Below are positions 1,442 through 27,199 of a DNA stretch of 32,000 bases, piece by piece. The stretch is taken from NCBI GenBank assembly GCA_043808785.1, contig JAZDEL010000009.1, positions 60,001 through 92,000 of the forward strand. The letters are read 5' to 3'. Under the pieces are notes generated by a model that was not told the DNA's origin, searched no databases, and saw nothing but the letters and a program-made list of their open reading frames with translations. This DNA is from Candidatus Iainarchaeum sp. GTDB taxonomy: Archaea > Iainarchaeota > Iainarchaeia > Iainarchaeales > JAZDEL01. The translations under genes were made by a program, and so were the position numbers. How positions within the stretch are numbered: the stretch's first letter is position 1; every line of letters starts with the position of its first letter.

Positions 1442-2140
1442 GTGGTGCTCTTGGAAGAACTGATTGAACTCGCAAAAAAACTCGGCCTGAACGAGTACGA
1501 ATCAAAGGCATATGTGGCGCTTTCAAAACTCGGCTCCGCCCCTGTCTCGCAGGTTAGCAGGCACGGTGCAATTCCGAGGGCACGCGTTTATGACGTGCTT
1601 GCAAGCCTTGACAGCAAGGGTTTTGCGGTGAAAAAGCCCACAAAGCCCGTGGAGTATGCCGCACTTCCCCCCTCCGCAGCGCTTAAGAACCTGCACGAAA
1701 GGAAGAGGCAGGAATTGGACAGCAGCCTTAAGGAACTTGAAAAGGTCTGCATTATGCTCGAGCGCAAGGCATCCTCGGGCGTAAAGCCTGGCGTGAATGA
1801 AGGAGGTGCCTGGAGCCTGCAGGGCGGCAGGCGCAATATTTACGAAAAAATACTGCAGGAACTCGCAAATGCCGAGCAGGCGGTCCTATTCTGTACGACC
1901 CCCAAGGGCATTAAGAGAAAAAACGGCGCCTTTGGGCATAAATTGGAAGCGCTTTCAAAGAAGGGCGTGAAGGTAAGCTTTGCAAAGCACCCCAATGCAA
2001 GGTTTGTGGTGTTCGACAAGAGCAGTGCAGTGCTTTTCCTTGACCCTGACAGGGGCAGCGGTGATGAGGAACGCGCGCTGCTTATAAAAAGCCCCTATAT
2101 TGCGGGTTATTTGTGCTCGACCCTGAAAAAGCAGGGTTAA
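1442..2140 (+). CDS. TrmB-family transcriptional regulator (winged HTH N-domain plus short C-domain)
   Basis: The N-terminus LIELAKKLGLNEYESKAYVALSKLGSAPVSQVSRHGAIPRARVYDVLASLDSKGFAV matches the TrmB HTH signature (L.lGLs.yEakvY.aLl..G..ta.eis....vPr.rvYdvL..L..kG.v). Start candidates are GTG 1442, GTG 1445 and TTG 1451. Confidence 0.85.
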   Translation: MVLLEELIELAKKLGLNEYESKAYVALSKLGSAPVSQVSRHGAIPRARVYDVLASLDSKGFAVKKPTKPVEYAALPPSAALKNLHERKRQELDSSLKELEKVCIMLERKASSGVKPGVNEGGAWSLQGGRRNIYEKILQELANAEQAVLFCTTPKGIKRKNGAFGHKLEALSKKGVKVSFAKHPNARFVVFDKSSAVLFLDPDRGSGDEERALLIKSPYIAGYLCSTLKKQG

Positions 2141-2179
2141 CCCGCTTTGGCATTTTGGGGGGCGAGTGTAAAAACATTC

Positions 2180-2211
2180 CTGCAGGGCGCGGGTTTTCCC
2201 GCCCTCTGCAG
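2180..2211. terminator. imperfect hairpin between convergent genes (possible bidirectional terminator)
   Basis: CTGCAGGGCGCGGG-TTTT-CCCGCCCTCTGCAG has a perfect GCGGG/CCCGC core plus an outer CTGCAG/CTGCAG stem with one mismatch and one wobble. It lies between the TrmB stop (2140) and the vWA gene stop (2254), and A/T runs flank it. Confidence 0.4.
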
Positions 2212-2253
2212 CAAAAAGAAACTGTTTGCAATGGCGCTTATTGCCGGGAATGG

Positions 2254-5200
2254 TTATTTCCTTCCCTTCCTGCGCTTTGCACTTCTGCCCGATGCCTTTC
2301 TCGCCCTCTTTGCCGGCTTCTCTATTTCCTCAAGCACCGAGAACATCGGCACAGGCGCCTCTTCCTTGGGTTTCCTTATTGCGCTGACCGCTGCGAAAAC
2401 AACGAGCGCCACAACTATGAGCAGCAGCACAAGTATTACTATGTTCTGCATGCTCACAAGGCTTACAAGGCCGGTGCCTATTGCTACAGGCTCGGCCTCG
2501 GTTTCATTTCCCGCGCCTTCCGCAGACTTTCCGAGTTCCACTGTTATGTCCCTTATGAAAGTGCCCTCGTTGGTTTTGAAAACCACGGGCACTATCGCCC
2601 TTGCAGCGCTGAAATCTTCGGGCAGGTCGAGGTACATGGTAACCTTTGTGGACGAATTCGCCTCTATAGTTGTGCTTTCCACATTGAATACCGCGCTGTA
2701 GGACATCGCCTCCGCGGAAGTTATCATCAGGGTTTTTGTCGAGTTGTTGTTCAGTTCGAAACTTACAACAGCGTCAACAGCGCCCTCCTTCTTCATCTCG
2801 TCAAGCCTGACGCCGCTGACCTTTATGTCGACAACTTCCTCCTTCACTTCCCTGCCCTTTATGTTGAGCTTTATTTCCGCAGTGGACACAAACCCGCGGT
2901 CCGTCTTTGCAGTTATTTCTATAGTGCCCTCCTCAGGGGTTATGTCAGCGGGCGGGCTTATTATGAAGTAAACATCAGTCCTCTCGCCCTTTCCCAGCTT
3001 TACCTTGGCCCGGTCTGGGTAAGCCCAGCCCTTGTTAAAGCTCAGGGTTACTTCCTGCGCAACCACGCCGCGGTTCTCCAGCGAGAGAACCTGCTTTGTA
3101 CCCTCGCATTCCGCTACATCGAGCCTGTACTTCATTATTATCAGGTCCACACCGAAGCAGCTCGCTTCGCTGAGGTAGTTTATGGGTTTCTTCTCCGTAG
3201 CCTTGGAGTGCGCGGATTCGGCAGTTGCCTGCATCTCCGCTTCCGAAGCGTCATTTGGCACATTCACGGTTATGGGCACAAGTGCCGAGCCCATTCCGTC
3301 TATGCTTACCTTTCCCTCGGCCTTAACCCACTTCGGCAGGATGCTCAGCGAGAGTTCCTGCTTTTTGGTCCCGAGGTTATTTATCGCTATGGAGTTTGTT
3401 GATGCAACGCCCCTGCATACGTTAAGTTCGGGCGGCAGGAGCAGTATGTTGTAGCAGTCCTCCACGCCGAGCGTGTACCCCTTTGAGAGCATCGCTTTGT
3501 CCGCGCTGACCTTTACAGTGAACGCCTTCTGCACAGGCGTTGCCAGCTCTATATTGAGCTTCTTCGCGAGCCCGCTGAAAACCGCAGACAGGCTGTCCGC
3601 GCTTTTCACATCATAATATTCCCCGCCCGTGGTTTCCACAATCTGCTTGAGCTGTGCCATGCCTTCCTGGTCTATGTCGAAGCCTATCGCATAAACAACT
3701 ATTCCCTTCCCCTTGAGCCTTTTTGCCGCGTCGGCAACATTGCCCTTGCATGTTTCCTTGCCGTCGCTCACAAGTATGACGTATTTGCTTGCGGCTCCCG
3801 CTTTGAAGTCCGATGCAGCGCCGTCAAGCGCGTTAGCCAAGGGTGTCTTTCCCCTGGGGCTCATGCCCTCTATTTTGTCGGTAATCTTCGCTATGTCGAG
3901 CTTTGAAACAGGAACAAGCAGCTGCGAAGCCTCGCATGCAGCGCCCTGCCCGAAAACCCTGAGGCCGAGCTGGACTTCGGTTATGCTGTTTGCGAACGAA
4001 ACTATCGCGTTCTTTGCCGCGTCCATCTTGTTGTGCGAGTTTATGCTCTCGACCATGCTGCCGCTCGAGTCCATAAGTATCTCGATGGCAATGTCGTTCC
4101 TCGACACCTTTGCCCCTTCCTCATAGCCCGAGGTTCCGAGGCTTGCGGTGAATGCCGCCTTTTCGCCCGCCTTCAGCGAAAATTCCTGCCCGCTGAGCGA
4201 AGCGTTTATGCCCTCTACGCTTACCCTTGCATCAACATCCTTTGTGCCCGTGTTCCTGAGCTCAAAGCTGTACTTTGCCCCTTCCTCAGCGCACGCGTTT
4301 TCCGCGCCGCCTGTTTTCTCGAGCGTTATGCCGTAGCAGTCGCTGAGCGTGAATTTGAATGTCTCCGTTGCCGTGTAATCGAACTTGCCGGATTTGGCGA
4401 TTATGCTTATCTCATAATCCCCTGCCCTTTCCGAGGTTTCCCTGAAATCAAGCCTTGCCTTTTTGCTCTGCCCGGCGCCGAGCGCAAACTCCTTTTCGCT
4501 GAGGCCGACCCATGAGGGTGCGCTCATCCCGAGCTTCACTATATCGTCCATCTTTCCGCTGTTTGTAATCTCGATCTCCGCGCTTGTGGCTTCCTCGAGG
4601 CATGCCTCGTGGCTGCCTGCAGCGCCTATGCCTATCTCGAACTCCTGCCCCTGCCCGAGCACGTACTGCGCGCTGTCCGCGGAGAAGAAATTCGGGTTCT
4701 GCAGGTATGCAACCGCATCAAAACTGTAAGTGCCGAGTTTTGCGTCGCACGGCGCCTGCACCCTAAGGTTCGTGTGTTCGGGCGTTCCCTTTGCGACCAT
4801 GAAATCGGTTTTGCCGAGCGTGAACCATCCGCTGTCAAGGCCGTTCAGCCCGAGCCTTACGCTCTCCCTCAGCTGGTTGGGTATGAGCGAGCGGTTTGTA
4901 AGCTTAACATCGTATTCCTTCGCCTCGCACTGCGTGGCGTTCTGCTTTGTAGGGGTTATATCCACATCCACAAAGTGCCCCTGCTTGATGTTTATGTTGC
5001 AGGTTACCCTTGCCGAGATGTCGTTCTTTACCACAATATCCGTCTTGTAACTGCCCGGTTCCGCGTAGCAGTCCGCGATGGTGTAAACGCGCAGTTCCCT
5101 GCACTCGTTCTTCGCAAGCGTTACAGTCGAGGGGATTATGTTTACCCACTGGGCTATCGGGCCCTCGGCGTATGTCTTGTAAGTGTGCGTCACGCCCGAA

Positions 5201-5340
5201 TCGTTGCAGAGCTTGAGGTTATTCACGGAAAGTTCGCACTGCACGCTCGTGCTCGAGCATTCGCCCTCAAGCGATGCAGCCCTCGCTATTCCGCCGAAAA
5301 CCAGCAGTATAAACCCCAGGATTACAAGCCTTTTGTCCAT
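2254..5340 (-). CDS. large surface protein: signal peptide, tandem beta-sandwich (CARDB/NEW3-like) modules, central vWA domain, C-terminal TM anchor and Lys/Arg tail
   Basis: The track ORF is 2254..5349 with a GTG start. I prefer ATG 5340 (MDKRLVILGFILLVFGGIARAAS, a signal peptide) because GAGGTG (5347-5352, minus strand) sits 6 nt upstream of it. A vWA domain with a complete MIDAS is present. The C-terminus is IVILVLLLIVVALVVFAAVSAI followed by RKPK...KRRKGRK. Confidence 0.9.
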   Translation of the reverse strand: MDKRLVILGFILLVFGGIARAASLEGECSSTSVQCELSVNNLKLCNDSGVTHTYKTYAEGPIAQWVNIIPSTVTLAKNECRELRVYTIADCYAEPGSYKTDIVVKNDISARVTCNINIKQGHFVDVDITPTKQNATQCEAKEYDVKLTNRSLIPNQLRESVRLGLNGLDSGWFTLGKTDFMVAKGTPEHTNLRVQAPCDAKLGTYSFDAVAYLQNPNFFSADSAQYVLGQGQEFEIGIGAAGSHEACLEEATSAEIEITNSGKMDDIVKLGMSAPSWVGLSEKEFALGAGQSKKARLDFRETSERAGDYEISIIAKSGKFDYTATETFKFTLSDCYGITLEKTGGAENACAEEGAKYSFELRNTGTKDVDARVSVEGINASLSGQEFSLKAGEKAAFTASLGTSGYEEGAKVSRNDIAIEILMDSSGSMVESINSHNKMDAAKNAIVSFANSITEVQLGLRVFGQGAACEASQLLVPVSKLDIAKITDKIEGMSPRGKTPLANALDGAASDFKAGAASKYVILVSDGKETCKGNVADAAKRLKGKGIVVYAIGFDIDQEGMAQLKQIVETTGGEYYDVKSADSLSAVFSGLAKKLNIELATPVQKAFTVKVSADKAMLSKGYTLGVEDCYNILLLPPELNVCRGVASTNSIAINNLGTKKQELSLSILPKWVKAEGKVSIDGMGSALVPITVNVPNDASEAEMQATAESAHSKATEKKPINYLSEASCFGVDLIIMKYRLDVAECEGTKQVLSLENRGVVAQEVTLSFNKGWAYPDRAKVKLGKGERTDVYFIISPPADITPEEGTIEITAKTDRGFVSTAEIKLNIKGREVKEEVVDIKVSGVRLDEMKKEGAVDAVVSFELNNNSTKTLMITSAEAMSYSAVFNVESTTIEANSSTKVTMYLDLPEDFSAARAIVPVVFKTNEGTFIRDITVELGKSAEGAGNETEAEPVAIGTGLVSLVSMQNIVILVLLLIVVALVVFAAVSAIRKPKEEAPVPMFSVLEEIEKPAKRARKASGRSAKRRKGRK
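3556..4098 (-). other. von Willebrand factor A (vWA) domain with complete MIDAS motif
   Basis: The domain reads IEILMDSSGSM ... GKTPLANAL ... YVILVSDGKE ... VVYAIGFDID. This gives DxSxS (D427, S429, S431), T502 and D529, numbered from the GTG at 5349. Confidence 0.85.
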
Positions 5341-5355
5341 GTTTTCCACCTCAAG

Positions 5356-5420
5356 CTTTGTTTTTTCAGTTTCGCCCTTTGTTTTTCTGTTTGTTCGCCC
5401 TTTGTTTTTTTCAGTTTTTT
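5356..5420. repeat. three tandem 20-23 nt units (CTTTG-T5-7-C(A)GTTT..CGC) in the spacer between the 747-aa and vWA genes
   Basis: The units are ctttgttttttcagtttcgc, cctttgtttttctgtttgttcgc and cctttgtttttttcagtttttt. On the coding (minus) strand they read as A-rich AAAAACAAAGG(GCGAA) repeats. Confidence 0.6.
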
Positions 5421-5426
5421 GGAACC

Positions 5427-7670
5427 TTACCTCGCCCTGACCATAATCCTTCTAGGCAGGCCATACCCTGTTTTTTTGTTACTTCCAAGTAGTAAAACTA
5501 GATAAATTATGGTCAGTAACATTAATATAGCTAACCCTGCGCCCAAAACTGCGGGGTTTGCGAGGTTCAGGAAACCCGTAATTCCCGCGGGGAGCCATCC
5601 GTTTCCGCCGCCCTGGCCTGTTGAATTTCCCCCGGTGCTTCCGCTGCCCGCACCCTGGCTTCCGCCAGCGCCGCCCCGGACATTAATCCTCATTCCCGCG
5701 GTTGCTATGTACTTCTCGCCCTTTGCCTCGAGCGTTGCATCATACTCCCTGGGCAGTGCGTTCTCCGCTGCATAAATCCTGCCGCTTACTGTTGCGCTGC
5801 CGAACGGCGCTATGGATGTTATGCGCGTTGTGGGGAAATAAACGCCGTTTCCGAGGCCCCAGAGCCTTATTGTTATGTTCTCCACGGTTTCCGCGGAGTT
5901 GTTCTTAATTGTGAACTCGAGGGTTTTCTCCTGCCCCGCGGCAATGGAAACATTGCCTGCGTAACCCGAGATTTCAAGTACGCCTTCCGCCCTTCCCGCG
6001 TTTCCCGCGTCCTCCACAACCCTGAATTTCAGTTCGTACTCCTCATTGAATCCTCCGCCCGCCTTTGCGTGCAGGGTTATTTCATAATTCCCGATTTCCG
6101 CATCGTAACCCGGGACAACGCTTACATAAACGCTTTTGCTTTCCCCAATTCCGAGGCCGAAATAACTGTCGGAAATGTCGTGGCTTATTGTTTCATAAGG
6201 GTTGTCGAGGTGCAGTGAAACGTGCTCCTCGTAATCCCCCTTGTTGCTGAACACTATTTCGAAAACCTCGAGGTCCTGCGCGCTGCATGCCCTTTCCTCA
6301 AGGCCGTTGTTCTTTACCTCCACGCGCATATCGTGCATCCTGCCGACATTTACCTGCACGAATTCCTTCTCCTCGCCTTTCGCGTTCCATGCGTAAAGCG
6401 CTATCTCGTGCCACCCTGTCTTGTCGGTTTCCCCTGCCTTAACCGTAATTTTGCCGCTGTAGGTTTTCCCGCCCTGCAGGGTTATGCCGTAGCTTTTCAG
6501 CGAGTTCGGCAAATCTCCCGTGCTTGAAAGCCTTATGTCCTGCTTTTCGCCGAGCAGGTTTTTTACCGTGAACCCTATGCTCACCTGTGCGCCCTTTTCA
6601 ACATCATATTTAACCGCATCAACGGAAAGCTCGAAAGGCCTGCCTGCTTCATCCGAGCACTCGGTTATGCCGAACCCGACAGTGCTTTCGGAATAAACCC
6701 TCTTTGCCTGCCCCTGTGCCTGCACAGCCTGGGCATAAAGGGGCACGTAATAGTAACCCGCGGCGGTTGTGCGGTTTATGTTTATCTTAAGTGTGACTTC
6801 CTCGCTTTCCCAAGCGCCGAGCCAGAGTTCATTCTCCCCAAACGAGGGAAGGAACATTTCCGAAACCGCGGAAAGGGTTATGTGCTGTTCCTTTGCGGTG
6901 TTGTTTTCGATGTAAACGGAAATTTCCTTTGTGTAAGAGTCCTTGCAGAATTCCATGCCCTGCTCGGGGAGTATGCCTATACTGCCCGCGCTCCCGCTTC
7001 CGCTGTTGCTGTTCGCGCCCTTGACATTAACCTTAATTTTCATTTTTTCCGTGAAGGTTCCGCTTGCCTCGGTTTCGCTGCCCCGCTCGCCCCCTTCTGC
7101 GCGGTAGCCCATTATCACATTTATTGCATATGCCCCTTTCCCCGCCCAGTCCTTTGCATTTACATGCATCGCGAATTTGGTGCTCTGCCCTTTCGCAAGG
7201 CAGAATTCCCCTTTCGGAAGAACGGCATAAATTCCATCGTAATTTGATTCCGTGCGCAGTTCCACGCACGCCCTGCCTTCGTAAAGGTTCTGTATTGTGA
7301 GCGCAACTCCCGCAGATGCGGAAGCGCCAAGCTCGATGTTACTGTTGTCCGCGCTTATTGCCACATCGCCCGTGCCGAAAGGCACCGCGGAAACGAAAAC
7401 CGAAAGCATAATCAGGGCGAACGCGAAAGCGAAAAGGTTCGCAACCTTGAGTTTTCCCACCTTGATTTTCCTTGCCCTCTTCGCAATCGCGGGCACCGGG
7501 TTGGCGATTTTCACACCTGCAACCTTGCCCACAATCGCGGGCACGGGGTTAACGAGCTTTACGCCCCTAACTTTTCCCGCAAGCGCTGTAAAGGGTTTGG
7601 CTATCCTAACCCTGCGAACCGCCTTAATTAGCCCTGAAAAAGGGCTTTTCGCGCGTGTTTTTGTTTTCAT
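5427..7670 (-). CDS. surface protein: basic repeat-containing N-terminal tail, TM/signal anchor, tandem beta-sandwich modules, Gly-rich linker, C-terminal TM anchor
   Basis: The 747-aa ORF starts at ATG 7670. Residues 1-75 are Lys/Arg-rich 16-aa repeats, followed by the helix VANLFAFAFALIMLSVFVSAV. Repeated 'TIKN/TVKN/FSNKG'-type strands resemble CARDB/COG1470 envelope proteins. The C-terminus is GGAGGSQGAGSGSTGGNSTGQGGGNG...GFLNL..., a TM helix, then PRRIMVRAR. Confidence 0.85.
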   Translation of the reverse strand: MKTKTRAKSPFSGLIKAVRRVRIAKPFTALAGKVRGVKLVNPVPAIVGKVAGVKIANPVPAIAKRARKIKVGKLKVANLFAFAFALIMLSVFVSAVPFGTGDVAISADNSNIELGASASAGVALTIQNLYEGRACVELRTESNYDGIYAVLPKGEFCLAKGQSTKFAMHVNAKDWAGKGAYAINVIMGYRAEGGERGSETEASGTFTEKMKIKVNVKGANSNSGSGSAGSIGILPEQGMEFCKDSYTKEISVYIENNTAKEQHITLSAVSEMFLPSFGENELWLGAWESEEVTLKININRTTAAGYYYVPLYAQAVQAQGQAKRVYSESTVGFGITECSDEAGRPFELSVDAVKYDVEKGAQVSIGFTVKNLLGEKQDIRLSSTGDLPNSLKSYGITLQGGKTYSGKITVKAGETDKTGWHEIALYAWNAKGEEKEFVQVNVGRMHDMRVEVKNNGLEERACSAQDLEVFEIVFSNKGDYEEHVSLHLDNPYETISHDISDSYFGLGIGESKSVYVSVVPGYDAEIGNYEITLHAKAGGGFNEEYELKFRVVEDAGNAGRAEGVLEISGYAGNVSIAAGQEKTLEFTIKNNSAETVENITIRLWGLGNGVYFPTTRITSIAPFGSATVSGRIYAAENALPREYDATLEAKGEKYIATAGMRINVRGGAGGSQGAGSGSTGGNSTGQGGGNGWLPAGITGFLNLANPAVLGAGLAILMLLTIIYLVLLLGSNKKTGYGLPRRIMVRAR
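7446..7670 (-). repeat. 48-bp / 16-residue periodic basic repeat encoding the N-terminal tail of the 747-aa protein
   Basis: The peptide units are RAKSPFSGLIKAVRRVR, IAKPFTALAGKVRGVK, LVNPVPAIVGKVAGVK and IANPVPAIAKRARKIK. The DNA shows caatcgcgggcac(c/g)gggtt at 7483-7502 and again at 7531-7550. Confidence 0.8.
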
Positions 7671-7698
7671 TTTTCTTCCCCCCCGCCTCTTAAGGGCA

Positions 7699-7929
7699 TT
7701 ACTGCCCCCAGGACTGGATCTTTATTTTCGCCTTCTTTGTGGCTTCAATAAGTCCCGCGAACGGGTTCCTTATTTTCGCCCTGCGCAGGCGCTTCGCCGC
7801 AGAAGCAAAAGCCTTGCCCGCGGTTTTGGGCGCGCCCTTCATGAATGCCGCAAGCGGGCTAACCGCTTTGCGCATTGTTTTTGCCCTTATCTTTTTGCCT
7901 TTTGTGTTTTTTGCCTTGTGTGTTTTCAT
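7699..7929 (-). CDS. 76-aa highly basic protein, paralogous to the N-terminal tail of the downstream 747-aa protein
   Basis: ATG 7929 is preceded by GGAGG (7937-7941, minus strand) with a 7-nt spacer, directly after the upstream gene's stop. The sequence MKTHKAK...KAVSPLAAFMKG...RAKIRNPFAGLIEATKKAKIKI carries the same (K/R)I.NP(F/V)..(L/I) motif as residues 1-75 of the next gene. Confidence 0.65.
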   Translation of the reverse strand: MKTHKAKNTKGKKIRAKTMRKAVSPLAAFMKGAPKTAGKAFASAAKRLRRAKIRNPFAGLIEATKKAKIKIQSWGQ

Positions 7930-7941
7930 TGTATTGCCTCC

Positions 7942-8637
7942 TTATCCCGCTATCCTGTCTTTCAGGCCCTCGAGCTTGGGGTCCCTTGGTTCAAGTGCGT
8001 TTCCGCGCCTTTTTGCCGAAGCCCCCTTGTTTTTGGGCATTGAAACCCTTGCAGTGAGCCTTGAGATAAACGCAATAAGCAGCACTGCCGCAATAACCAC
8101 AAGCACGATATCGAGCAGGAGCTCTCCCGTTGCCCCGCTGAAAATTCCCCCGAATGCGGTAACCATTCCGCCGAGGTTAAACAGCCCTTCCGTTTCCCCG
8201 TTGCCTGTTCCGCCACCCTGTGTTCCGCCCTGAACTGTTCCTGCGCTTTCGCCCGCCTTTAAAAACCCAAGTGTTATTTTCCTCTCGTCCCTGGTTCCGC
8301 CGAGGGTTACCGCGACAGTCGCGGTGTATGTCGAGCCGCGCAGTTTCTCCGAGGGCGGGAATTTTATTTTCACTTCCGCCTTTTCGCCCGCGCCGAGGAA
8401 TTCCGGCGCGCTTATTTCGCTATCCACAGGAGCGAAAGCCTCTATCATGAGGCCCTTCCCTTCCCCCGAAGGGTTTGATACCGTGAACCTTATCTCGCCG
8501 CCGCTGTCCCCGATTTTAACGTTTTCGGGGAACGCCGCTACCGCGGCATATGCCGTGCCCGCAACCGCAAGGCAGGCAAGAATTGCGGCAACCGCGAACA
8601 CGGATACCAGTGGTTTACAAGCCATGAGAACAACCAT
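7942..8637 (-). CDS. secreted single beta-sandwich protein with Gly-rich linker, C-terminal TM anchor and basic tail
   Basis: The signal peptide is KPLVSVFAVAAILACLAVAGTAYA. A CARDB-like module follows (GGEIRFTVSNPSGEGKGLMIEAF...GAGEKAEVKIKF...YTATVAVT). Then come GGTQGGGTGNGETEGLFNL, the TM helix LLLDIVLVVIAAVLLIAFI and a basic tail. An alternative start is ATG 8625. Confidence 0.8.
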   Translation of the reverse strand: MVVLMACKPLVSVFAVAAILACLAVAGTAYAAVAAFPENVKIGDSGGEIRFTVSNPSGEGKGLMIEAFAPVDSEISAPEFLGAGEKAEVKIKFPPSEKLRGSTYTATVAVTLGGTRDERKITLGFLKAGESAGTVQGGTQGGGTGNGETEGLFNLGGMVTAFGGIFSGATGELLLDIVLVVIAAVLLIAFISRLTARVSMPKNKGASAKRRGNALEPRDPKLEGLKDRIAG

Positions 8638-8778
8638 TCACTCATTAACATTAATGTGTTGTTACTACTATATTGTAGCAACTGAAGTATATAAAGGTTT
8701 CGTTTGGCCCCCTCGCAGGGAAAATTTGCCGCCCTGCTGCACAATAATACTCATTTTTAAATTCTAGAATACTATATA
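8638..8778. promoter_or_regulatory. AT-rich divergent promoter region between the surface operon and the Cys-rich repeat gene
   Basis: Several TATA-like boxes are present on both strands: GTATATAAAGG 8687-8697, TTTTTAAATT 8754-8763 and ACTATATAAT 8771-8780. The exact boxes in use cannot be assigned from sequence. Confidence 0.45.
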
Positions 8779-11478
8779 ATGGGGGCGGGGGAACTGGCTT
8801 TGTTGCTTAAATCCGGAGTTTGGGGCGGGGTTTTGCTTGCAATGGCTGCCCTGGCGTTGTTCGGGGCACTGATTTACGTTGCGCTTCCCGGCTTGGATTT
8901 GCAGGGCACGCCTGCGCAGGGTCAAAACGCGCCTTCGCGGGGCACCGGGCTTTTCACGCTTTTCTTCAGCACATGTAACCCCAACGGAAACTGCCAGCCC
9001 CAGCAGGGCGAGAGCTATTCAACCTGCCCCGAGGATTGCTGCGATGCCGACTGCACGGATTACCAGGACAGCCTCTGCCATGCCGAATGCCAGGGCTACA
9101 ACGGATGCTCGTTCACAAGCGGGTGCAACGGCCTTGCAATAGACACAAATATCTGCATCAGCACAACGCAGCGTGCCGCGTGCTGCTCAGGCTCCGGGCA
9201 GAGCTGCTCGCAGAACCAGTACTGTTCGGGGGGAGGCTGCATTACCTGCTCCACAGTTTGCGACAACACCTGCCAGGGTGCGCAGTGCTACGGCATAGAC
9301 CCGGATTGCGATGCCTCGGGCAACCCCACAGGCCAGTGCTGCGGCAACGGCGTATGCAATGTTGCGGAAACATGCTTCACCTGCAGTGCGGACTGCGGCA
9401 GCCCGGCATGCACCGCGGACGCGAACTGCAATGACGGCAACTCCTCGACAAAGGATGCATGCATAGGCGCAGGCACATGCTCCGCATACTGCCAGAACTG
9501 CTATGTTGCCTGCGACAGCAATGCCTCGTGCAATGACGGCAATTCATTCACGCAGGACACCTGCACTAATCCCGGCACCTGCAATTCCGCGTGCTCTTAC
9601 TGCACGATTAAGTGCAGTTCCGATGCCGCATGCAATGACAATAACTCCTCCACAACCGACTTATGCATAAGCCCGGGTACATGCCCCTCCTACTGCTCTA
9701 ACGCCTCCTCCGGGTGTACGCCGGCCTGCTACACGGACGCGAACTGCAGCGACAGCAATTCGTTCACGCAGGACACATGCACTAACGCGGGCACATGCAC
9801 CGCAGCCTGCCTGCACACCCCATGCACAATCGCCTGCACCTCGAACGCGCAGTGCGACGACAGCAATTCCCTTACTTCGGACACCTGCACTAACGCGGGC
9901 ACATGCACTGCGTCATGCACGCATTCCGCCGCTTCCTGCGAAATCATATGCGCATCGAATGCCGACTGCGACGACGGCATTGCCTCCACAACCGACACCT
10001 GCACAAATGCAGGCACATGCAACGCATACTGCGAGAACACCCTTGCGGAAGAGGGGCAGGATGGGCAGCAGGGCGGGGAGGATAACTGCGCAATCGCATG
10101 CTCCTCTGCGGGGGATTGCGACGACCGCGATGCCCTTACCTCGGATTCCTGCGGCGCTGCCGGAACCTGCAGTGCGGAATGCCGCCATGCGCTTGCCTCC
10201 CCCGCTGCCCTGAACTTCAAAACCTCCCCGCCGAAAACAATACAGCGCGGGCAGAAACTTACGCTTGCTGCCGAGTTCCTTGCCGGCGGCAATCCCGTGG
10301 CAGGCGCCGCACTTGCGCTTTCAGGCACTAAAGGCGAATCCGCAAAGTTCGGGGCAGCAAAAGGCGGAGGCTACCTGGTTTCGTATGAAATCCCCATAGA
10401 TGCCGCGCTCGGGGAGCGCGAGTTCACGGTTTCCGCAAAAAAGGTGCACGCGCTCGGAACGCTTGAGGCCGAGAAAAAGTTCAAGGTTAACGTCGGGCCT
10501 GCGGAGCTCCTTATAACCCTCCTTAAGCCGAAAGCCGCGGACATTAATGCAGGCATCCCTGTAGCCATCGAGGTCGGCATCGCATACCCCTCGGGGGAAG
10601 CCGCAAATGATGCCGAACTGACAGCGGAAATCAACGGCGCGCCCGTTGTTTTCACAAAGCTGCGCGACGGTGTTTATTCCGCGCAGTACACATTCACTTC
10701 CGCGCAGGCGGGCGCGGCAGACCTAACCATGCAGGCAACCGATGCCTACGCAAACCTCGGCTCGAAATCGGTTTCCCTGAATGTGCAGAAGCAGGGCATT
10801 GACCTGCTCCTTGCCCTGCTTTTGGTGCTTTTCGGCGCGCTTGTTCTCGGCATAATAGGCCTCATACTCCTGCTAATAGCCGCGTTGCTTGCCTTTGCCT
10901 CCCTTGCTTATATGAAGGAGCGCAGGGTTGCTGAAATTCTGGCGAGAAAAAAGTGGCTTTTTGCCGCTAAAAATTCCGCAGCTGAAAAGCTCAGGAAAAA
11001 CGAAATCAGCAGGGCGCAATATGATGAACTGTCCGCGAAATACGACTTGGAGATAAAAAAACTTGACGAGTCGCTTGCATTCCTTGAAAAGAGGCGCCCA
11101 ATAGGCGACATATTCCACGATTTGGGGGTTAAGGCAAGGGCATTCATAGATTCGACCGCGCCTGTGCAGCCTAAGCAGGGCGGGGCTGTGCAGGGCAAGA
11201 CTTCAGGGCCTGCACAGGCCGAACCAGGCAAACCATGGCGTGCCAAGCAGGGCGCACAGGCGCAGGCCAAGGCAGCCCCTCCCAAGCCGCTTTCGCCAGA
11301 GGAACGTGCAAAGGTCGATACTGAAATAAACGAAGTTAAGGAAACAATGAAAATCCTTGAAAAGGAATATTTCAAGCGCGCCTTGACGGATCAGGAATAT
11401 AGGCAGAGGATGTTCGACCTGAAGACAAGGCTGCACCTTCTCGAGCTTAAGAAGGGCGGGGGCCTGAGGAAGGGGTAA
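8779..11478 (+). CDS. bitopic Cys-rich repeat surface protein: N-terminal anchor, about 400-aa Cys-rich ectodomain with 7 tandem six-Cys modules, Ig-like region, TM helix, cytoplasmic coiled-coil tail
   Basis: The 899-aa ORF has an N-terminal helix VWGGVLLAMAALALFGALIYVAL. CGNG.C....C..DC-type modules are followed by seven C-x5-C-(N/D)D-x-N-x2-T-x-D-x-C-x5-C-x3-C repeats. The second TM is LLLALLLVLFGALVLGIIGLILLLIAALLAFASLAY. The K/E/Q-rich tail has SHOCT-like motifs. Confidence 0.9.
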   Translation: MGAGELALLLKSGVWGGVLLAMAALALFGALIYVALPGLDLQGTPAQGQNAPSRGTGLFTLFFSTCNPNGNCQPQQGESYSTCPEDCCDADCTDYQDSLCHAECQGYNGCSFTSGCNGLAIDTNICISTTQRAACCSGSGQSCSQNQYCSGGGCITCSTVCDNTCQGAQCYGIDPDCDASGNPTGQCCGNGVCNVAETCFTCSADCGSPACTADANCNDGNSSTKDACIGAGTCSAYCQNCYVACDSNASCNDGNSFTQDTCTNPGTCNSACSYCTIKCSSDAACNDNNSSTTDLCISPGTCPSYCSNASSGCTPACYTDANCSDSNSFTQDTCTNAGTCTAACLHTPCTIACTSNAQCDDSNSLTSDTCTNAGTCTASCTHSAASCEIICASNADCDDGIASTTDTCTNAGTCNAYCENTLAEEGQDGQQGGEDNCAIACSSAGDCDDRDALTSDSCGAAGTCSAECRHALASPAALNFKTSPPKTIQRGQKLTLAAEFLAGGNPVAGAALALSGTKGESAKFGAAKGGGYLVSYEIPIDAALGEREFTVSAKKVHALGTLEAEKKFKVNVGPAELLITLLKPKAADINAGIPVAIEVGIAYPSGEAANDAELTAEINGAPVVFTKLRDGVYSAQYTFTSAQAGAADLTMQATDAYANLGSKSVSLNVQKQGIDLLLALLLVLFGALVLGIIGLILLLIAALLAFASLAYMKERRVAEILARKKWLFAAKNSAAEKLRKNEISRAQYDELSAKYDLEIKKLDESLAFLEKRRPIGDIFHDLGVKARAFIDSTAPVQPKQGGAVQGKTSGPAQAEPGKPWRAKQGAQAQAKAAPPKPLSPEERAKVDTEINEVKETMKILEKEYFKRALTDQEYRQRMFDLKTRLHLLELKKGGGLRKG
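9409..10185 (+). repeat. seven tandem about 34-50-codon six-cysteine modules (in-frame coding repeat)
   Basis: Modules start at C211, C245, C279, C317, C353, C391 and C441. Modules 2, 4 and 5 share long near-identical DNA stretches (ttcacgcaggacac(c/a)tgcactaa... and tgcactaacgcgggcacatgcac). Confidence 0.85.
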
Positions 11479-11585: not shown

Positions 11586-12248
11586 TCAAATCCAGCGCAC
11601 TCCCTTCTTTCCCCTCGAAACTATCGCACCCAGCACGTCGCTCTTTGTTATTATCCCTCTTATTTTCCCCCCGCGCCCGACAAGTACGGCTTGCCCCGAA
11701 TCAAGCAGTGCGGAAACAACCCCGAGCGGGGAATTTTCCCTTATCACAGGCATTGCCTCATCCATGACTTCCTTCACAAGCATCTTTCCCAGGTCTGCGG
11801 GCTTCTCGGACTTGCCTATGCGCGTGAGTATAAACATTTCCGAAACCGTCCCCACTGGCTTGTCATCCTCGAAAACAGGCAATTGGGAAACCGCGTTCTT
11901 TTTCATCACCTGCACCGCCCTTTTCACGGTGTCCTGCGGCCTTACGCTTATCACCCTTGCGCTCATCACGTCCTTTGCCTGCAGTTCGGTTTCCCTGTGC
12001 ATCGCGTCAAGCAAATCGAATATGCGCTTGGCATTATCGTAACTTGGCACAAGCACGCCCGACTCCATCTTTGCAATCAGCGACTGCGACACAGCTGCCT
12101 TTGCGGCGAGTTCCGCCTGGGTAAGCCCAAATTGTTTTCGCCTTTGTTTTATTTCATTTAATTCGGGAAGCACATGAACCAACCCCGCCCCTGCCCATTG
12201 TGCCCGCCAAATGCGGGAAGCATATTCGATTATTATGCCTGCAAACAT
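11586..12248 (-). CDS. XRE-type HTH plus CBS-pair transcriptional regulator
   Basis: The HTH is LNEIKQRRKQFGLTQAELAAKAAVSQSLIAKMESG. Two CBS motifs follow (VMSARVISVRPQDTVKRAVQVMKKNAVSQLPVFEDDKPVGTVSE; VMDEAMPVIRENSPLGVVSALLDSGQAVLVGRGGKIRGIITKSDVL). The true start may be downstream (TTG or GTG near 12176-12185). Confidence 0.85.
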   Translation of the reverse strand: MFAGIIIEYASRIWRAQWAGAGLVHVLPELNEIKQRRKQFGLTQAELAAKAAVSQSLIAKMESGVLVPSYDNAKRIFDLLDAMHRETELQAKDVMSARVISVRPQDTVKRAVQVMKKNAVSQLPVFEDDKPVGTVSEMFILTRIGKSEKPADLGKMLVKEVMDEAMPVIRENSPLGVVSALLDSGQAVLVGRGGKIRGIITKSDVLGAIVSRGKKGVRWI

Positions 12249-12357: not shown

Positions 12358-13566
12358 ATGAAACAGGGAAAATATTTCTTCACGTCGGAGTCCGTAACCG
12401 AGGGGCACCCGGACAAGATGTGCGACCAGATAAGCGATGCCGTGCTCGATGCGGTTTTCGAAAAGGACCCTAACGCACGCGTTGCGTGCGAGTGCGTAAC
12501 TAAAACAGGGATTGTTTTCGTCACGGGCGAGATTACCACAAATACCTATGTCGATATCCAGCGCGTCGTGCGCGACACGATAAAGGACATAGGCTACGAC
12601 GACCCTTCTTTCGGGTTCGACGCCGACGGCTGCGGGGTTATTGCCGCAATCTCCGAGCAGAGCCCCGATATATCCATGGGCGTTACAGAGGGCGAGGGGC
12701 ACGAGCAAGGGGCGGGAGACCAGGGAATGATGTTCGGCTACGCGACAAATGAAACCCCCGAATACATGCCTTTGCCTATTGTGCTCGCGCACAAGCTTGT
12801 GAAGAAACTCTCCGAAGTGCGCAGGGCGAAGGAACTCACATATTTGCGCCCGGACGGAAAAAGCCAGGTTACCGTTGAATACGACAGCGGAAAGCCGATA
12901 AGGGTTGACGCTGTAGTGATTGCGGCACAGCACGCGCCCGATATAACGCACGACCAGATTAAGCAGGACATTATAGGGAAAGTGATTAAGCCCGTCTGCG
13001 GCGAGTGGATTGACGGGAAAACAAAATTCTTCGTGAACGAGACGGGAAAGTTCATTGTTGGCGGCCCTGTTGCGGATTCAGGCCTCACGGGGAGAAAGAT
13101 AATCGTGGACACATACGGCGGCCACGGCTCGCACGGAGGGGGGTGCTTCTCGGGAAAGGACCCCTCGAAAGTGGACAGGAGCGGGGCATATGCTGCGCGC
13201 TACATTGCGAAGAACATAGTCGCTGCCGGCCTCGCGGACAAGTGCGAGGTGCAGTTGGCATACGCAATCGGCGTTGCCGAACCTGTCAGCATTCTGGTGC
13301 ACACCTTCCGCACCAACAAAATCCCCGAGGAAAAAATCTCGGAGTTGGTTCGCAAACACTTCCCCCTGAAGCCGAGGGCGATAATTGACCATCTCAAACT
13401 GCGCAGGCCGATTTTCAGGAAAACCGCGGCATTCGGGCATTTCGGCAGGAACGACCCCGATTTCACATGGGAGAAAACGGATAAAGTCGAGGCGCTGAAG
13501 AAGGATGCAGGGCACCTGCACAAGCCAGCAGTGAGCGGGGATAAGGTGCCGCTGGACGGCGCCTGA
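12358..13566 (+). CDS. metK: S-adenosylmethionine synthetase, bacterial/eukaryotic type
   Basis: [37 protein letters not shown] and [50 protein letters not shown] are near-identical to the E. coli MetK signatures. GGAGG at 12346-12350 lies 7 nt upstream of the ATG. Confidence 0.97.
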
Positions 13567-22939: not shown

Positions 22940-23398
22940 GTGCCTGCGGAATGGCTGAAAAAGGAAATCGATTTTTACAAAAACATGCGTTCGCCGCTGA
23001 TACCTTTGCTGCACGAAATCCGCAGGAAGGAGGGGCACCTTTCGCGCGAGAGCCTTGTTTTCATTTCCCGCGAGCTCGGCATACCGTTAAGCCACATATA
23101 TGAGGCAGCGACCTTTTACGCTGAATTCAACCTGAACCCCAAAGGAAAAAACGTCCTCAGGGTTTGCACAGGCACGACCTGCAATGTAAAGGGCGGGAGC
23201 TTCTGCCTGCGCTTCCTGGAGAGGGTTCTTGAAATAAAGCCTGGAGAAACGACCGATAACGGCAAGTTCACTCTTGAAACAGTCAACTGCTTCGGCGCAT
23301 GCAGTGCCGCGCCGGTTATTGAAATAAACGGCGTCCTGCACACAAAGATGGGTTTGCAGGAACTTAAGGAAATAATTTCAAAGATGGGGGCGAAGTGA
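22940..23398 (+). CDS. hydC: NuoE/HydC-type thioredoxin-like [2Fe-2S] subunit
   Basis: LIPLLHEIRRKEGHLS...ISRELGIPLSHIYEAATFYAEF is present. The cluster ligands are CTGTTC (C-x4-C) and CFGACSAAP (C-x3-C). The start is GTG. Confidence 0.9.
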   Translation: MPAEWLKKEIDFYKNMRSPLIPLLHEIRRKEGHLSRESLVFISRELGIPLSHIYEAATFYAEFNLNPKGKNVLRVCTGTTCNVKGGSFCLRFLERVLEIKPGETTDNGKFTLETVNCFGACSAAPVIEINGVLHTKMGLQELKEIISKMGAK

Positions 23399-25342
23399 AT
23401 GGGCAGGGGAAAAGCCGCAGGCGCGAGGGTTAAGCGCACAGCAAAAAAAATTACTAGGCGCGCCACGGGCGTAAAGCACGCAGCGGGGGCGAAGCACGCC
23501 CACAAGGCAAAACACCTGCGCAGCCATATCCGCATAGGCAGTTCGAAGCTCAGGCCGCGTGCCGGCGTTGGAAAAAAACGGGGGCAAATCCAGGTTTCAG
23601 TCGGCGCAGCAAGCTGCGGCATTTCCGCAGGCGCGCTTGCGGTTATTGCCGAGTTCGAGAAGCGGGGCGTGAAGCCGAAGCGCGTAGGGTGCATCGGCAT
23701 GTGCCACGCGGAACCGATTGTCGAGGTGAAATACGGCGATGGGGAGACGCTTGTTTTCGCGCATGCAAACCCTGCGGACGCGAGGAAAATCGCGCACGGC
23801 TTCGGCTTCCTTGAGAAGGGGAAGTTCATTGCGAAAAGGAAGGGCGGAAAAAAGGTTATCGGCGGGCATTACCTTGATGAACTGCCTTTTTTCAAACTTC
23901 AGGAGCGCAGGCTTACCTGGCGCTGCGGAAGGGTAAGCCCCGACAGCCTTGATGATTACCTTGCACACCGGGGTTTCACCGCGCTGCGCAAGGCGCTGAA
24001 AATGAAGCCCGAACGCATTGTTGCGGAGGTAAAGGATTCAAAACTCAGGGGCAGGGGCGGAGCCGCATTCCCCACTGGCCTGAAATGGGAGTTCATGCGA
24101 AAAAGCCCCGAAAAGGAGCGCTACCTGATATGCAATGCGGATGAAGGGGATCCTGGCGTGTTCTCAAACCGCATACTGTTTGAATCAGACCCTTTCGCGG
24201 TTATTGAGGGAATGGTTATCGCAGGTTACGCGCTGGAAGCCACAAAAGGCTTCATTTACATCCGCGCGGAGTACGGGAAATCCATAACCCACCTGAAGCA
24301 CGCGCTTGCGCTTGCAAGGGAAAACAACTTTTTGGGCAGGAAAATCCTCGGCTCGAAATTTTCATTTGACATAGAAATCCGCGAGGGCGCGGGCGCCTAT
24401 GTATGCGGCGAGGAAACCGCGTTAACGCGCAGCATTGAAGGGCTTTCAGGCAGGCCTGTGCCGAGGCCGCCTTTCCCGACCGAGAAAGGGCTCTGGGGAA
24501 AGCCCACGGTGATTCAGAACACGGAAACCCTTACAAATATCCCTTATATTGTGCTCAATGGTTCCGCATGGTTCGGGGAGAAGGGGGTTTCGCACTGCCC
24601 CGGCACGAAGATATTTTCAATAAGCGGTGATATAGCGCACACGGGATATGTGGAGGTCCCGCTCGGGGTTAAGTTAGGCCATCTGCTCGAGCTGCTTGGA
24701 ATTAAAACCCACGAACTGAAAGCCGTTCACCTCGGCGGCCCGAGCGGGGGCTGCCTGCCCATAGCCCTGCACAACACGACGCTCGATTACGATTCGTTGT
24801 GCAATGTGGGCGCTACGGTAGGTTCTGGCAGCATAATTTTCCTCGGAAAGAAGCGCAGCATACCCGAATTCGCGCACAAGTATGTCGGGTTCTTTGTTTC
24901 CGAATCCTGCGGCAAGTGCGTGCCCTGCAGGGAAGGGACGATGCGTTTGCTTGAAACCCTCGATAGGGTTCTTGCAGGCGGGGGAAAAATTTCTGATTTG
25001 AAGGAACTTGACGATTTGAGCGGGAGCATGAAGGATTCAGCGCTCTGCGGCCTCGGGCAGGCGGCGCCCAACGCACTGCAGAGCACGCTGAAATATTTCA
25101 GGGAGGAATACCTTGCGCACATAAGCGGCATGCCCTCGGTTGAAAGCCCGTTTTCCGAATTCATAATAAGCAAACCGCTCTGCAACGGCTGTGATTTGTG
25201 CGTGCGCGTCTGCCCCACTGACGCAATCACGGGCAGAAAGGGCGAGCTGCACGCGATAATCCGGGAGAAGTGCATATGGTGCGGGCACTGTGTGGAAGCG
25301 TGCCCTGTTAAGGCTATACATCTTGAGAGGGTGAAGGTTTGA
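23399..25342 (+). CDS. hydB: NuoF/HydB-type NAD(P)H-binding flavoprotein subunit with N-terminal thioredoxin-like domain and C-terminal 2x[4Fe-4S] ferredoxin domain
   Basis: The signatures are GRGGAAFPTGLKWEF, ICNADEGDPG, GAGAYVCGEETAL, SCGKCVPCREGT, CNGCDLCVRVCP and CIWCGHCVEACP. The ATG directly abuts the hydC stop (TGAATG). The first 62 residues form a Lys/Arg/Ala/His-rich extension. Confidence 0.93.
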   Translation: MGRGKAAGARVKRTAKKITRRATGVKHAAGAKHAHKAKHLRSHIRIGSSKLRPRAGVGKKRGQIQVSVGAASCGISAGALAVIAEFEKRGVKPKRVGCIGMCHAEPIVEVKYGDGETLVFAHANPADARKIAHGFGFLEKGKFIAKRKGGKKVIGGHYLDELPFFKLQERRLTWRCGRVSPDSLDDYLAHRGFTALRKALKMKPERIVAEVKDSKLRGRGGAAFPTGLKWEFMRKSPEKERYLICNADEGDPGVFSNRILFESDPFAVIEGMVIAGYALEATKGFIYIRAEYGKSITHLKHALALARENNFLGRKILGSKFSFDIEIREGAGAYVCGEETALTRSIEGLSGRPVPRPPFPTEKGLWGKPTVIQNTETLTNIPYIVLNGSAWFGEKGVSHCPGTKIFSISGDIAHTGYVEVPLGVKLGHLLELLGIKTHELKAVHLGGPSGGCLPIALHNTTLDYDSLCNVGATVGSGSIIFLGKKRSIPEFAHKYVGFFVSESCGKCVPCREGTMRLLETLDRVLAGGGKISDLKELDDLSGSMKDSALCGLGQAAPNALQSTLKYFREEYLAHISGMPSVESPFSEFIISKPLCNGCDLCVRVCPTDAITGRKGELHAIIREKCIWCGHCVEACPVKAIHLERVKV

Positions 25343-27135: not shown

Positions 27136-27151
27136 TGCGGCGCAAAGAATA

Positions 27152-27159
27152 TTTTTTTT
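27152..27159 (+). terminator. oligo-T tract (T8) 17 nt after the hydA stop
   Basis: ATTTTTTTTA follows directly after the operon. Archaeal intrinsic termination typically uses such T-runs. Confidence 0.45.
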
Positions 27160-27199
27160 AGGGTTTTGGAAGTCAAAATTAAGTGAAGGATGTGCTGAA

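Follow-up and report, generated by a model that had tools for sequence, protein, structure and literature searches.

A conserved gene trio for predicted membrane-anchored beta-sandwich surface proteins, with a facultative vWA module, in Iainarchaeota

The 32-kb stretch of DNA analyzed here (the window) comes from a metagenome-assembled genome (MAG) of Candidatus Diapherotrites (Iainarchaeota, DPANN). Its minus strand carries a cluster of closely spaced open reading frames (ORFs), g1 to g4, three of which encode large predicted surface proteins. An earlier note, made from the sequence of the window, had described this cluster as a four-gene operon built around a von Willebrand factor type A (vWA) protein and had proposed it as a candidate apparatus for attachment to a host cell. 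Judging from comparisons with related genomes, the conserved entity is a trio of tail-anchored beta-sandwich proteins, g1, g3, and g4, in which the vWA domain is a facultative module. Our favored reading, held with moderate confidence, is that this cassette is a conserved operon for three Sec-exported, type I, transmembrane (TM)-anchored proteins that would form a complex at the cell surface, the metal-dependent head for ligand binding being facultative. The features of the cluster are as follows; MIDAS denotes the metal ion-dependent adhesion site of the vWA domain.

7942-8637, minus strand: g1, ORF of 231 aa
7699-7929, minus strand: g2, ORF of 76 aa
5427-7670, minus strand: g3, ORF of 747 aa
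2254-5340, minus strand: g4, ORF of 1028 aa with the ATG as start (1031 aa with the GTG at 5349)
3547-4110, minus strand: vWA domain of g4, approximately aa 411-598 (Pfam PF00092)
4057-4071, 3844-3846, and 3763-3765, minus strand: MIDAS codons for DSSGS, T499, and D526, respectively, from the translation
7937-7941, minus strand: GGAGG, Shine-Dalgarno-like, before g2, by sequence reading
5347-5352, minus strand: GAGGTG, Shine-Dalgarno-like, before g4, by sequence reading
5341-5426, minus strand: g3/g4 spacer of 86 nt, A-rich on the coding strand, with two direct copies of AAACAAAGGGCGAA and the GAGGTG
8688-8695, minus strand: TTTATATA box, TATA-like (archaeal), about 50 nt 5' of the g1 start, by sequence reading

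The ORF coordinates, the spacers of 12, 28, and 86 nt at g1/g2, g2/g3, and g3/g4, and the GGAGG and GAGGTG motifs had all been put forward in the earlier note, and all were borne out when the sequence was read. The 141-nt divergent region upstream of g1 (8638-8778) contains the TTTATATA box, a candidate archaeal TATA-like element whose function we infer from its sequence.

Gene order and the facultative vWA module

Orthologs were sought by tblastn and hidden Markov model (HMM) search, and 27 related loci were examined (28 were fetched, two being duplicate contigs), with the complete GW2011_AR10 genome (CP010424) and Ca. Iainarchaeum andersonii among them. The order g1-g3-g4 is kept in 24 of the 27, which are all the loci holding all three genes. 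The earlier note had let its claim stand or fall with the presence of synteny in relatives, and synteny was found in all the examined loci in which the three genes occur together. As for the other three loci, L013, whose contig begins inside g3, lacks g1 only, and the remaining two, L026 and L028, are truncated on the upstream side. The conserved layout runs MetK(-), helix-turn-helix (HTH)-CBS(+), a variable large surface protein, g1(+), g3(+), g4(+), and TrmB(-). Orthologs of g1, g3, and g4 occur in dozens of genomes, and their identities range over 23-74% for g1, 24-65% for g3, and 32-83% for g4.

The junctions between the genes point the same way. In the relatives, g1 and g3 usually overlap by 4 nt, and g3 and g4 mostly overlap or are separated by a gap of <20 nt, the exceptions being four gaps of 55-153 nt. 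Because overlap or close spacing of g3 and g4 prevails in most distant relatives, the 86-nt spacer is peculiar to the window and its closest relative. Deep synteny, together with overlapping or nearly abutting stop and start codons, makes co-transcription and translational coupling likely, and g1-g3-g4 are probably transcribed as a polycistronic unit, as the earlier note had suggested for the cluster. The cassette is found once per locus, at a fixed position, in every examined Iainarchaeota locus that extends far enough, which makes it a likely core envelope component of the lineage.

The place of the vWA domain is a different matter. Most lineages have the vWA domain: the g4 proteins of the clade to which the window, AR10, and Ca. 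Iainarchaeum andersonii belong contain it as an insertion between beta-sandwiches. Among distant relatives of g1, the same gene order ends in a third gene of 589-746 aa without vWA. Such vWA-less g1-g3-g4 cassettes are present in loci L090, L091, and L092. An HMM of g4 aligned with the 746-aa protein of L090 over HMM positions 3-406 and 697-1029 (E = 7e-123), and the gap between the two segments omits exactly the vWA domain and the adjoining sandwich. On this profile alignment, the third genes of the vWA-less cassettes are true g4 orthologs. The description of the cluster as an operon built around vWA thus had to be abandoned: the cassette exists without vWA in some lineages, and metal-dependent binding cannot, for that reason, be its founding function. 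By MetK identity, L090 is no farther from the vWA-bearing lineages than these are from each other and falls among them, so that on this measure gain and loss of the vWA module are indistinguishable.

A further arrangement was observed in locus L089 (GCA_053536075.1, L089:8001-13524), in which g1 and g3 form one 1305-aa ORF with the internal g3 signal peptide kept. The g4 slot of this locus encodes a 507-aa beta-sandwich protein without vWA, which had no BLASTP match and scored E = 9e-6 and 13 bits against the g4 HMM; by these searches it is not recognizable as a g4 ortholog.

The three proteins and their membrane anchors

The predicted g4 protein begins with a signal peptide and four beta-sandwiches, continues with the vWA domain and approximately four more beta-sandwiches, and ends with a GTGL motif, a TM helix (aa 967-985 by hydropathy, 968-984 in the AlphaFold2 model), and a Lys/Arg-rich cytoplasmic tail. 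It matched Pfam VWA PF00092 at aa 424-590 with 55.5 bits (cut-off, 23.8), PF13519 with 46.5 bits (cut-off, 27), and the FixG_C Ig-like model with 53.8 bits (cut-off, 25.6). The earlier note had read all five MIDAS ligands in this domain, and they are there: D424-S-S426-G-S428, T499, and D526. It had also asked that these residues be conserved among homologs. In an alignment of 18 orthologs, D424, S426, S428, and D526 are invariant and T499 is present in 17 (Ser in the remaining one), and the MIDAS motifs also occur in 23/23 g4 sequences derived from the loci. The vWA domain is the best-conserved part of g4, with a mean pairwise identity of 53% versus 34-52% for the other domains. Profile matches and conserved ligands together support membership of the vWA superfamily with a MIDAS, and metal binding is predicted. 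The g4 protein is 100% identical to an NCBI protein from a Candidatus Diapherotrites MAG. All full-length g4 orthologs, 998-1065 aa in length, come from MAGs assigned to Iainarchaeota or Diapherotrites or left as unclassified archaea; beyond this group, relatives were obtained for the vWA domain alone, most of them from bacteria and with identities of 29-40%.

The 18-ortholog alignment also contains 17 invariant cysteines and many other invariant residues. At the AR10-like locus L007, a DsbA/thioredoxin-like protein of 311 aa is encoded between the HTH-CBS gene and the surface-protein genes (L007:1905-2840); in view of the invariant cysteines of g4, this gene fits disulfide formation in Cys-rich ectodomains.

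The g3 protein consists of a basic-repeat extension (aa 1-70), a hydrophobic signal/anchor (aa 71-95), an array of NEW3-type beta-sandwiches, and a Gly/Ser linker, followed by the [TSA]-G-[FL] motif described below, a TM helix (aa 708-726) whose end reads S-L-L-N-S-N-K in many lineages, and a basic tail. It belongs at the domain level to Pfam NEW3/NPCBM_assoc (PF10633; 38.2 bits, cut-off 24.4). CARDB (PF07705) reached 16.3 bits, below the cut-off of 22.7, and in g4 NEW3 fell below the Pfam cut-off. Of the tandem CARDB/NEW3 modules that the earlier note had seen in the large proteins, the NEW3 assignment in g3 therefore stands above its cut-off, and those of CARDB and of NEW3 in g4 are sub-threshold. 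The g3 and g4 proteins are distant paralogs built from common beta-sandwich modules.

The g1 protein has a Sec-type signal peptide, one beta-sandwich (aa 32-125), a Gly-rich linker, a juxtamembrane helix, a TM segment (aa 169-199), and a cytoplasmic tail in which the PKLEGLKDRIAG motif is located. As a single sequence it had no match in Pfam; across the g1 family there were weak matches to the MSP, Cep192, and CFAP65 Pfam models. An AlphaFold2 model built from 73 sequences had a predicted local distance difference test score (pLDDT) of 81, with the sandwich at approximately 95, and contained short juxtamembrane, long TM, and cytoplasmic helices. Foldseek searches with this model returned chaperone-usher chaperones (PapD-like) and VAP/MSP/ASH domains at sequence identities of 10-18%, and a PapD/MSP-like beta-sandwich is the high-confidence prediction for the ectodomain of g1. 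VAP proteins share with g1 the order of an MSP-like domain, a linker, and a C-terminal TM segment; their MSP domain is cytosolic, whereas that of g1, which has a signal peptide, is predicted to be extracellular. The chaperones of chaperone-usher pili have two domains, whereas g1 has one. A profile search of 1.84 billion representative proteins found 230 relatives of 160-345 aa, and g1 is an undescribed protein family without a Pfam family of its own. The most conserved segment of the family is the TM helix, with six positions conserved at >=90% in the 73 sequences compared with a mean column identity of 20%; its consensus is D/E-x-x-L-x-x-I-A-A-x-L-L-I-A-F-I-A-R, and the core IAAxLLIAFIARxV is nearly invariant.

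Hydropathy profiles of g1, g3, and g4 each contain one N-terminal hydrophobic segment, one C-terminal TM helix, and a basic tail. The topology that the earlier note had given the three large products was thereby reproduced, and it supports the predicted envelope localization and C-terminal anchoring of all three. The N termini of the cassette proteins resemble ordinary Sec signal peptides and not those of type IV pilins, and the Pilin_N/class III signal peptide model matched weakly in only 3/73 g1 homologs (best E = 0.017). A common motif, [TSA]-G-[FL]-x-x-[LF], lies 8-15 residues before the TM core in 61/67 orthologs of g1, g3, and g4 and, in many genomes, in the variable protein upstream of g1 as well; in the window, the C termini that carry it are encoded at 7942-8160 (g1), 5427-5560 (g3), and 2254-2480 (g4). 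Such sequence-specific TM and juxtamembrane segments suggest either that the proteins associate specifically with one another in the membrane or that they share a signal for sorting or insertion. No LPxTG motif was found in g1, g3, g4, or the divergent neighbor g0, and no PGF motif and no match to the NCBIfam C-terminal sorting-signal models was found in the cassette proteins. Neither MoxR nor a pilin, a sortase, or a glycosyltransferase is encoded among the main ORFs of the window, in agreement with the earlier note.

The remaining ORF of the cluster, g2, does not fit this scheme. Its product is very basic (23 K+R and 1 D+E over 76 aa) and had no match in Pfam, and its only counterpart was found in the nearest relative, L005 (g4 83% identical), in which it is fused in frame with g3. 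There a single 815-aa ORF begins 12 nt past g1, and approximately seven basic repeats of 16 aa precede the g3 signal-anchor. The repeat consensus is K-[IV]-x-N-P-F-A-x-x-A-K-R-x-R-K-[IV] (about 16 aa), and the array, at 7461-7929 (minus strand) in the window and L005:1843-2300 in the relative, is conserved as protein and not alignable as DNA by blastn. In the window one part of it belongs to g2 and the rest to residues 1-70 of g3. The two ORFs lie in different reading frames, and a 1-nt indel within 7703-7722, a segment containing a G5 run, would fuse them. Either a genuine frameshift or a mistake in the assembly could account for the frame change near this run. More distant g3 orthologs have plain signal peptides without the repeat extension; in the window, a GTG at 7458-7460 preceded by AAGGA is a possible internal g3 start that would likewise yield a plain signal peptide. 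We interpret g2 as a putative lineage-specific fragment or duplicate of the N-terminal extension of g3 and not as a fourth subunit; it would be a split-off piece of a cytoplasmic basic-repeat extension peculiar to this lineage. The conserved cassette has three genes, and the four-gene operon of the earlier note is reduced accordingly.

Other features of the window

Around the cassette, the window contains the following features.

1442-2140, plus strand: TrmB-family regulator, convergent with the cassette (Pfam TrmB E = 1.1e-18) and convergent downstream of it in most related loci
8779-11478, plus strand: g0, divergent from g1, Cys-rich membrane protein of 899 aa (68 Cys); TM segment, aa 689-707; cytoplasmic tail of about 190 aa, coiled-coil
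11586-12248, minus strand: HTH_3-CBS regulator, a conserved neighbor across Iainarchaeota
12358-13566, plus strand: MetK, a bacterial-type three-domain S-adenosylmethionine synthetase, a conserved neighbor across Iainarchaeota
22940-27135, plus strand: three genes in a row, for a 2Fe-2S protein of 152 aa (NuoE-like), a flavoprotein of 647 aa (NuoF-like), and the large subunit of an [FeFe] hydrogenase, 598 aa (HydA-like)
27200-28348: radical-SAM/SPASM gene directly downstream of the preceding row
25540-27315, minus strand: antisense ORF of 591 aa over hydA
2113-3402, plus strand: antisense ORF of 429 aa over g4

The protein g0 contains at least five tandem modules of approximately 34-38 aa with the pattern C-x-[ST]-[DN]-A-x-C-[ND]-D-...-G-T-C and had no match in Pfam. 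Beyond the window, it was found in the nearest relative only. Its slot in other Iainarchaeia is taken by a variable surface protein of 600-1350 aa, encoded on the same strand as the cassette, with the C terminus GL[VA]GLATTAG-TM-S[IV]F.KK. The gene content of the row at 22940-27135 marks it as a cluster of the HydABC type, here encoded by an Iainarchaeota MAG; archaeal [FeFe] hydrogenases are the subject of a 2024 Cell paper (PMC11216029). The antisense ORFs over hydA and g4 are in all likelihood spurious and merely shadow the genes on the coding strand. The content of the window outside the cassette fits the assignment to Iainarchaeota: besides TrmB, MetK of the bacterial type, and the HydABC-type [FeFe] hydrogenase cluster, it includes genes for a NifS-like enzyme and a Fic protein.

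Several scans returned nothing of note. No tRNA was found in a tRNA scan, Rfam had no match across the whole window, a tandem repeat finder reported trivial short repeats only, and the PADLOC defense models did not match g0 to g4. A scan for promoter and terminator consensus sequences gave counts within about 1-1.5 standard deviations of the shuffled expectation, with a bacterial sigma-70 model that is irrelevant to archaea.

Relationship to known systems and possible function

By sequence, the vWA domain of g4 is nearest to the BatA/BatB type (NCBIfam VWA_BatA_Lepto, E = 7.6e-9; BatB, PDB 3ibs, E = 0.003), and the Bat model NF047508 reached 35 bits, far below its cut-off of 380. The topology of BatA and BatB differs from that of g4 with its N-terminal signal, extracellular beta-sandwich arrays, and C-terminal anchor, and no MoxR, DUF58, or Bat partner turned up among the main ORFs of the window or the genes called in 16 related loci. 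In architecture, g4 resembles the sortase-pilus tip adhesins RrgA of Streptococcus pneumoniae and GBS104/PilA of Streptococcus agalactiae: a stalk of Ig-like beta-sandwiches is interrupted by a vWA domain with a MIDAS, a C-terminal hydrophobic segment is followed by a basic tail, and the protein is displayed at the surface (for g4, this is predicted). Those proteins rely on sortase, LPXTG, and CnaB sandwiches, whereas the g4 cassette is archaeal, is built of NEW3, FixG_C, and PapD-like sandwiches, and has neither a sortase gene nearby nor LPXTG; unlike the adhesins of sortase pili, g4 appears to keep its TM helix as a permanent anchor, which is followed by a cytoplasmic tail of 40-60 aa.

The integrin beta subunit offers a second, looser likeness, with a vWA-fold MIDAS domain (beta-I) inserted in a beta-sandwich, the hybrid domain, and a type I, single-pass topology with a cytoplasmic tail, and the encoding of g4 beside other single-pass beta-sandwich subunits is integrin-like in context. 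Integrin beta has PSI and EGF modules, which g4 does not, and there was no evidence in g4 of an ADMIDAS (adjacent to MIDAS) or a SyMBS (synergistic metal ion-binding site). Integrins have two partners and the cassette three; only the generic vWA fold is common to them, and the likeness is architectural. The SlaA/SlaB proteins of Sulfolobales and the COG1470-type CARDB/NEW3 proteins resemble the cassette as operon-encoded beta-sandwich envelope proteins with a C-terminal TM segment, and to our knowledge neither kind of system contains vWA.

The earlier note had also exposed its claim to a match with a characterized S-layer operon. No S-layer model of Pfam or NCBIfam scored above its cut-off against g1, g3, or g4; a trace of the PACE-CTERM "putative S-layer" model in g3 amounted to 17.9 bits against a cut-off of 110. 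A Methanococcales-type S-layer protein of 1039 aa (UniProt A0A2G9N319) has been predicted for Iainarchaeota (bioRxiv 10.1101/2024.05.28.596244). The g4 ortholog of the CG11 Diapherotrites MAG, a possible source genome of A0A2G9N319, is 1035 aa long; its published description sets A0A2G9N319 apart, and it is probably a different protein from g4. In the literature searched, no paper linked Diapherotrites to a vWA protein and none described a g1-g3-g4 cluster. The cluster is a previously undescribed, lineage-specific form of vWA-bearing surface-protein systems.

We favor a model in which g1, g3, and g4 would assemble through their juxtamembrane and TM segments into a heteromeric surface complex. 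The vWA domain, where present, would hold a divalent cation at its MIDAS and with it engage an acidic group on a ligand, and the complex would serve the envelope as a module for metal-dependent binding or adhesion. Candidates for the ligand are the envelope or S-layer of the cell itself, a substrate, a matrix, and a partner cell. The synteny and orthology of the three genes, their common topology, the conserved MIDAS, the anchor features that they share, and the vWA-less cassettes speak for this model. So do the structure predictions and searches proposed in the earlier note, with PapD/MSP-like matches for g1 and, for g4, a string of sandwiches, the vWA domain (aa 417-596), more sandwiches, a disordered linker, and the TM helix. 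Several observations weigh against the model. The flanking genes MetK, HTH-CBS, and TrmB are also syntenic, and the gene order may reflect slow genome rearrangement; the cassette is kept in some lineages that have no vWA. The g4 structure prediction had a mean pLDDT of 76 and a predicted template modeling score (pTM) of 0.38, and its interdomain geometry is unreliable. The g4 model matched only generic Ig-like strings in the PDB, namely hydin-like ciliary central-pair proteins, alpha-2-macroglobulin/C5, and titin. An alpha-2-macroglobulin-like trap was rejected because there is no thioester motif.

The complex may instead be a housekeeping one, a membrane-anchored stalk or spacer that organizes a pseudo-periplasm or tethers the S-layer, with the MIDAS binding an acidic residue or a glycan of the cell's own envelope and not an external target. 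We regard this as a serious rival but give it clearly less credence than a binding module. It would account for a single copy at a fixed position beside housekeeping genes across the lineage, the nearly constant length and the invariant cysteines of g4, a vWA domain that is conserved and not diversifying, and the persistence of the cassette where vWA is missing, as well as for the confinement of variability to the protein upstream of g1. The separately predicted Methanococcales-type S-layer protein would need an anchor, but the same preprint describes the S-layer proteins of DPANN archaea as orthologous and gives them an anchoring domain of their own (bioRxiv 10.1101/2024.05.28.596244). Single copy, fixed position, constant length, and many invariant residues make g4 more like a housekeeping envelope component than a host-range adhesin. 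This bears on the proposal of the earlier note, in which the cassette would be the apparatus by which an episymbiotic archaeon attaches to a host or partner cell, with the vWA domain as its host-binding head. MIDAS-bearing vWA domains mediate adhesion in integrins and in the pilus tip adhesins of Gram-positive bacteria, the source is a DPANN archaeon, and the cassette encodes cell-surface proteins. The description of an episymbiotic small-genome archaeon holds for the small DPANN genome but not for episymbiosis, since genomic inference suggests that Diapherotrites, including Ca. Iainarchaeum, may be free-living (PMC6349945; PMC8407392), with no known host. Because of this suggested lifestyle, because the cassette predates vWA or survives without it, and because g4 is conserved in sequence and length and does not diversify in the manner typical of host-range determinants, the attachment proposal is weak, and we consider it unlikely.

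At the other extreme, the three genes might encode unrelated surface proteins that merely adjoin one another and form no complex, their synteny being phylogenetic inertia. The stability of the whole neighborhood, flanking genes included, would suit this explanation, as would the descent of g3 and g4 from common beta-sandwich modules. Opposed to it are the stop-start overlaps at both junctions in many lineages, the retention of the gene order in the distant loci L091 and L092 even though their flanking genes differ, the g1-g3 fusion ORF of L089, and the juxtamembrane motif common to all three proteins, and we judge it very improbable. A more speculative elaboration of the complex, for which we see only a slim chance, is an integrin-like heteromeric single-pass receptor that couples metal-dependent binding to the cell interior, with three type I subunits having beta-sandwich legs and a MIDAS vWA head inserted in one. 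The coupling would rely on the sequence-specific TM helices and on conserved cytoplasmic tails, which read PKLExLKxRIxG in g1, are Lys-rich in g4, and consist of basic repeats in g3. Alternatively or additionally, the combination of [TSA]-G-[FL], TM helix, and basic residues would be an undescribed sorting signal, and this we hold at the same low level of expectation.

The envelope proteins of DPANN archaea, and the contact of these cells with surfaces or partners, are little understood. If g1, g3, and g4 form the complex that we favor, the g1 proteins would make up a new family of surface adaptors anchored in the membrane. In practical terms, the cassette is a target for surface proteomics, for labeling in cryo-electron tomography, and for the enrichment of uncultured cells with antibodies or ligands. 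The lineages with and without the MIDAS vWA domain represent a natural experiment on what metal-dependent binding adds to such a surface system.

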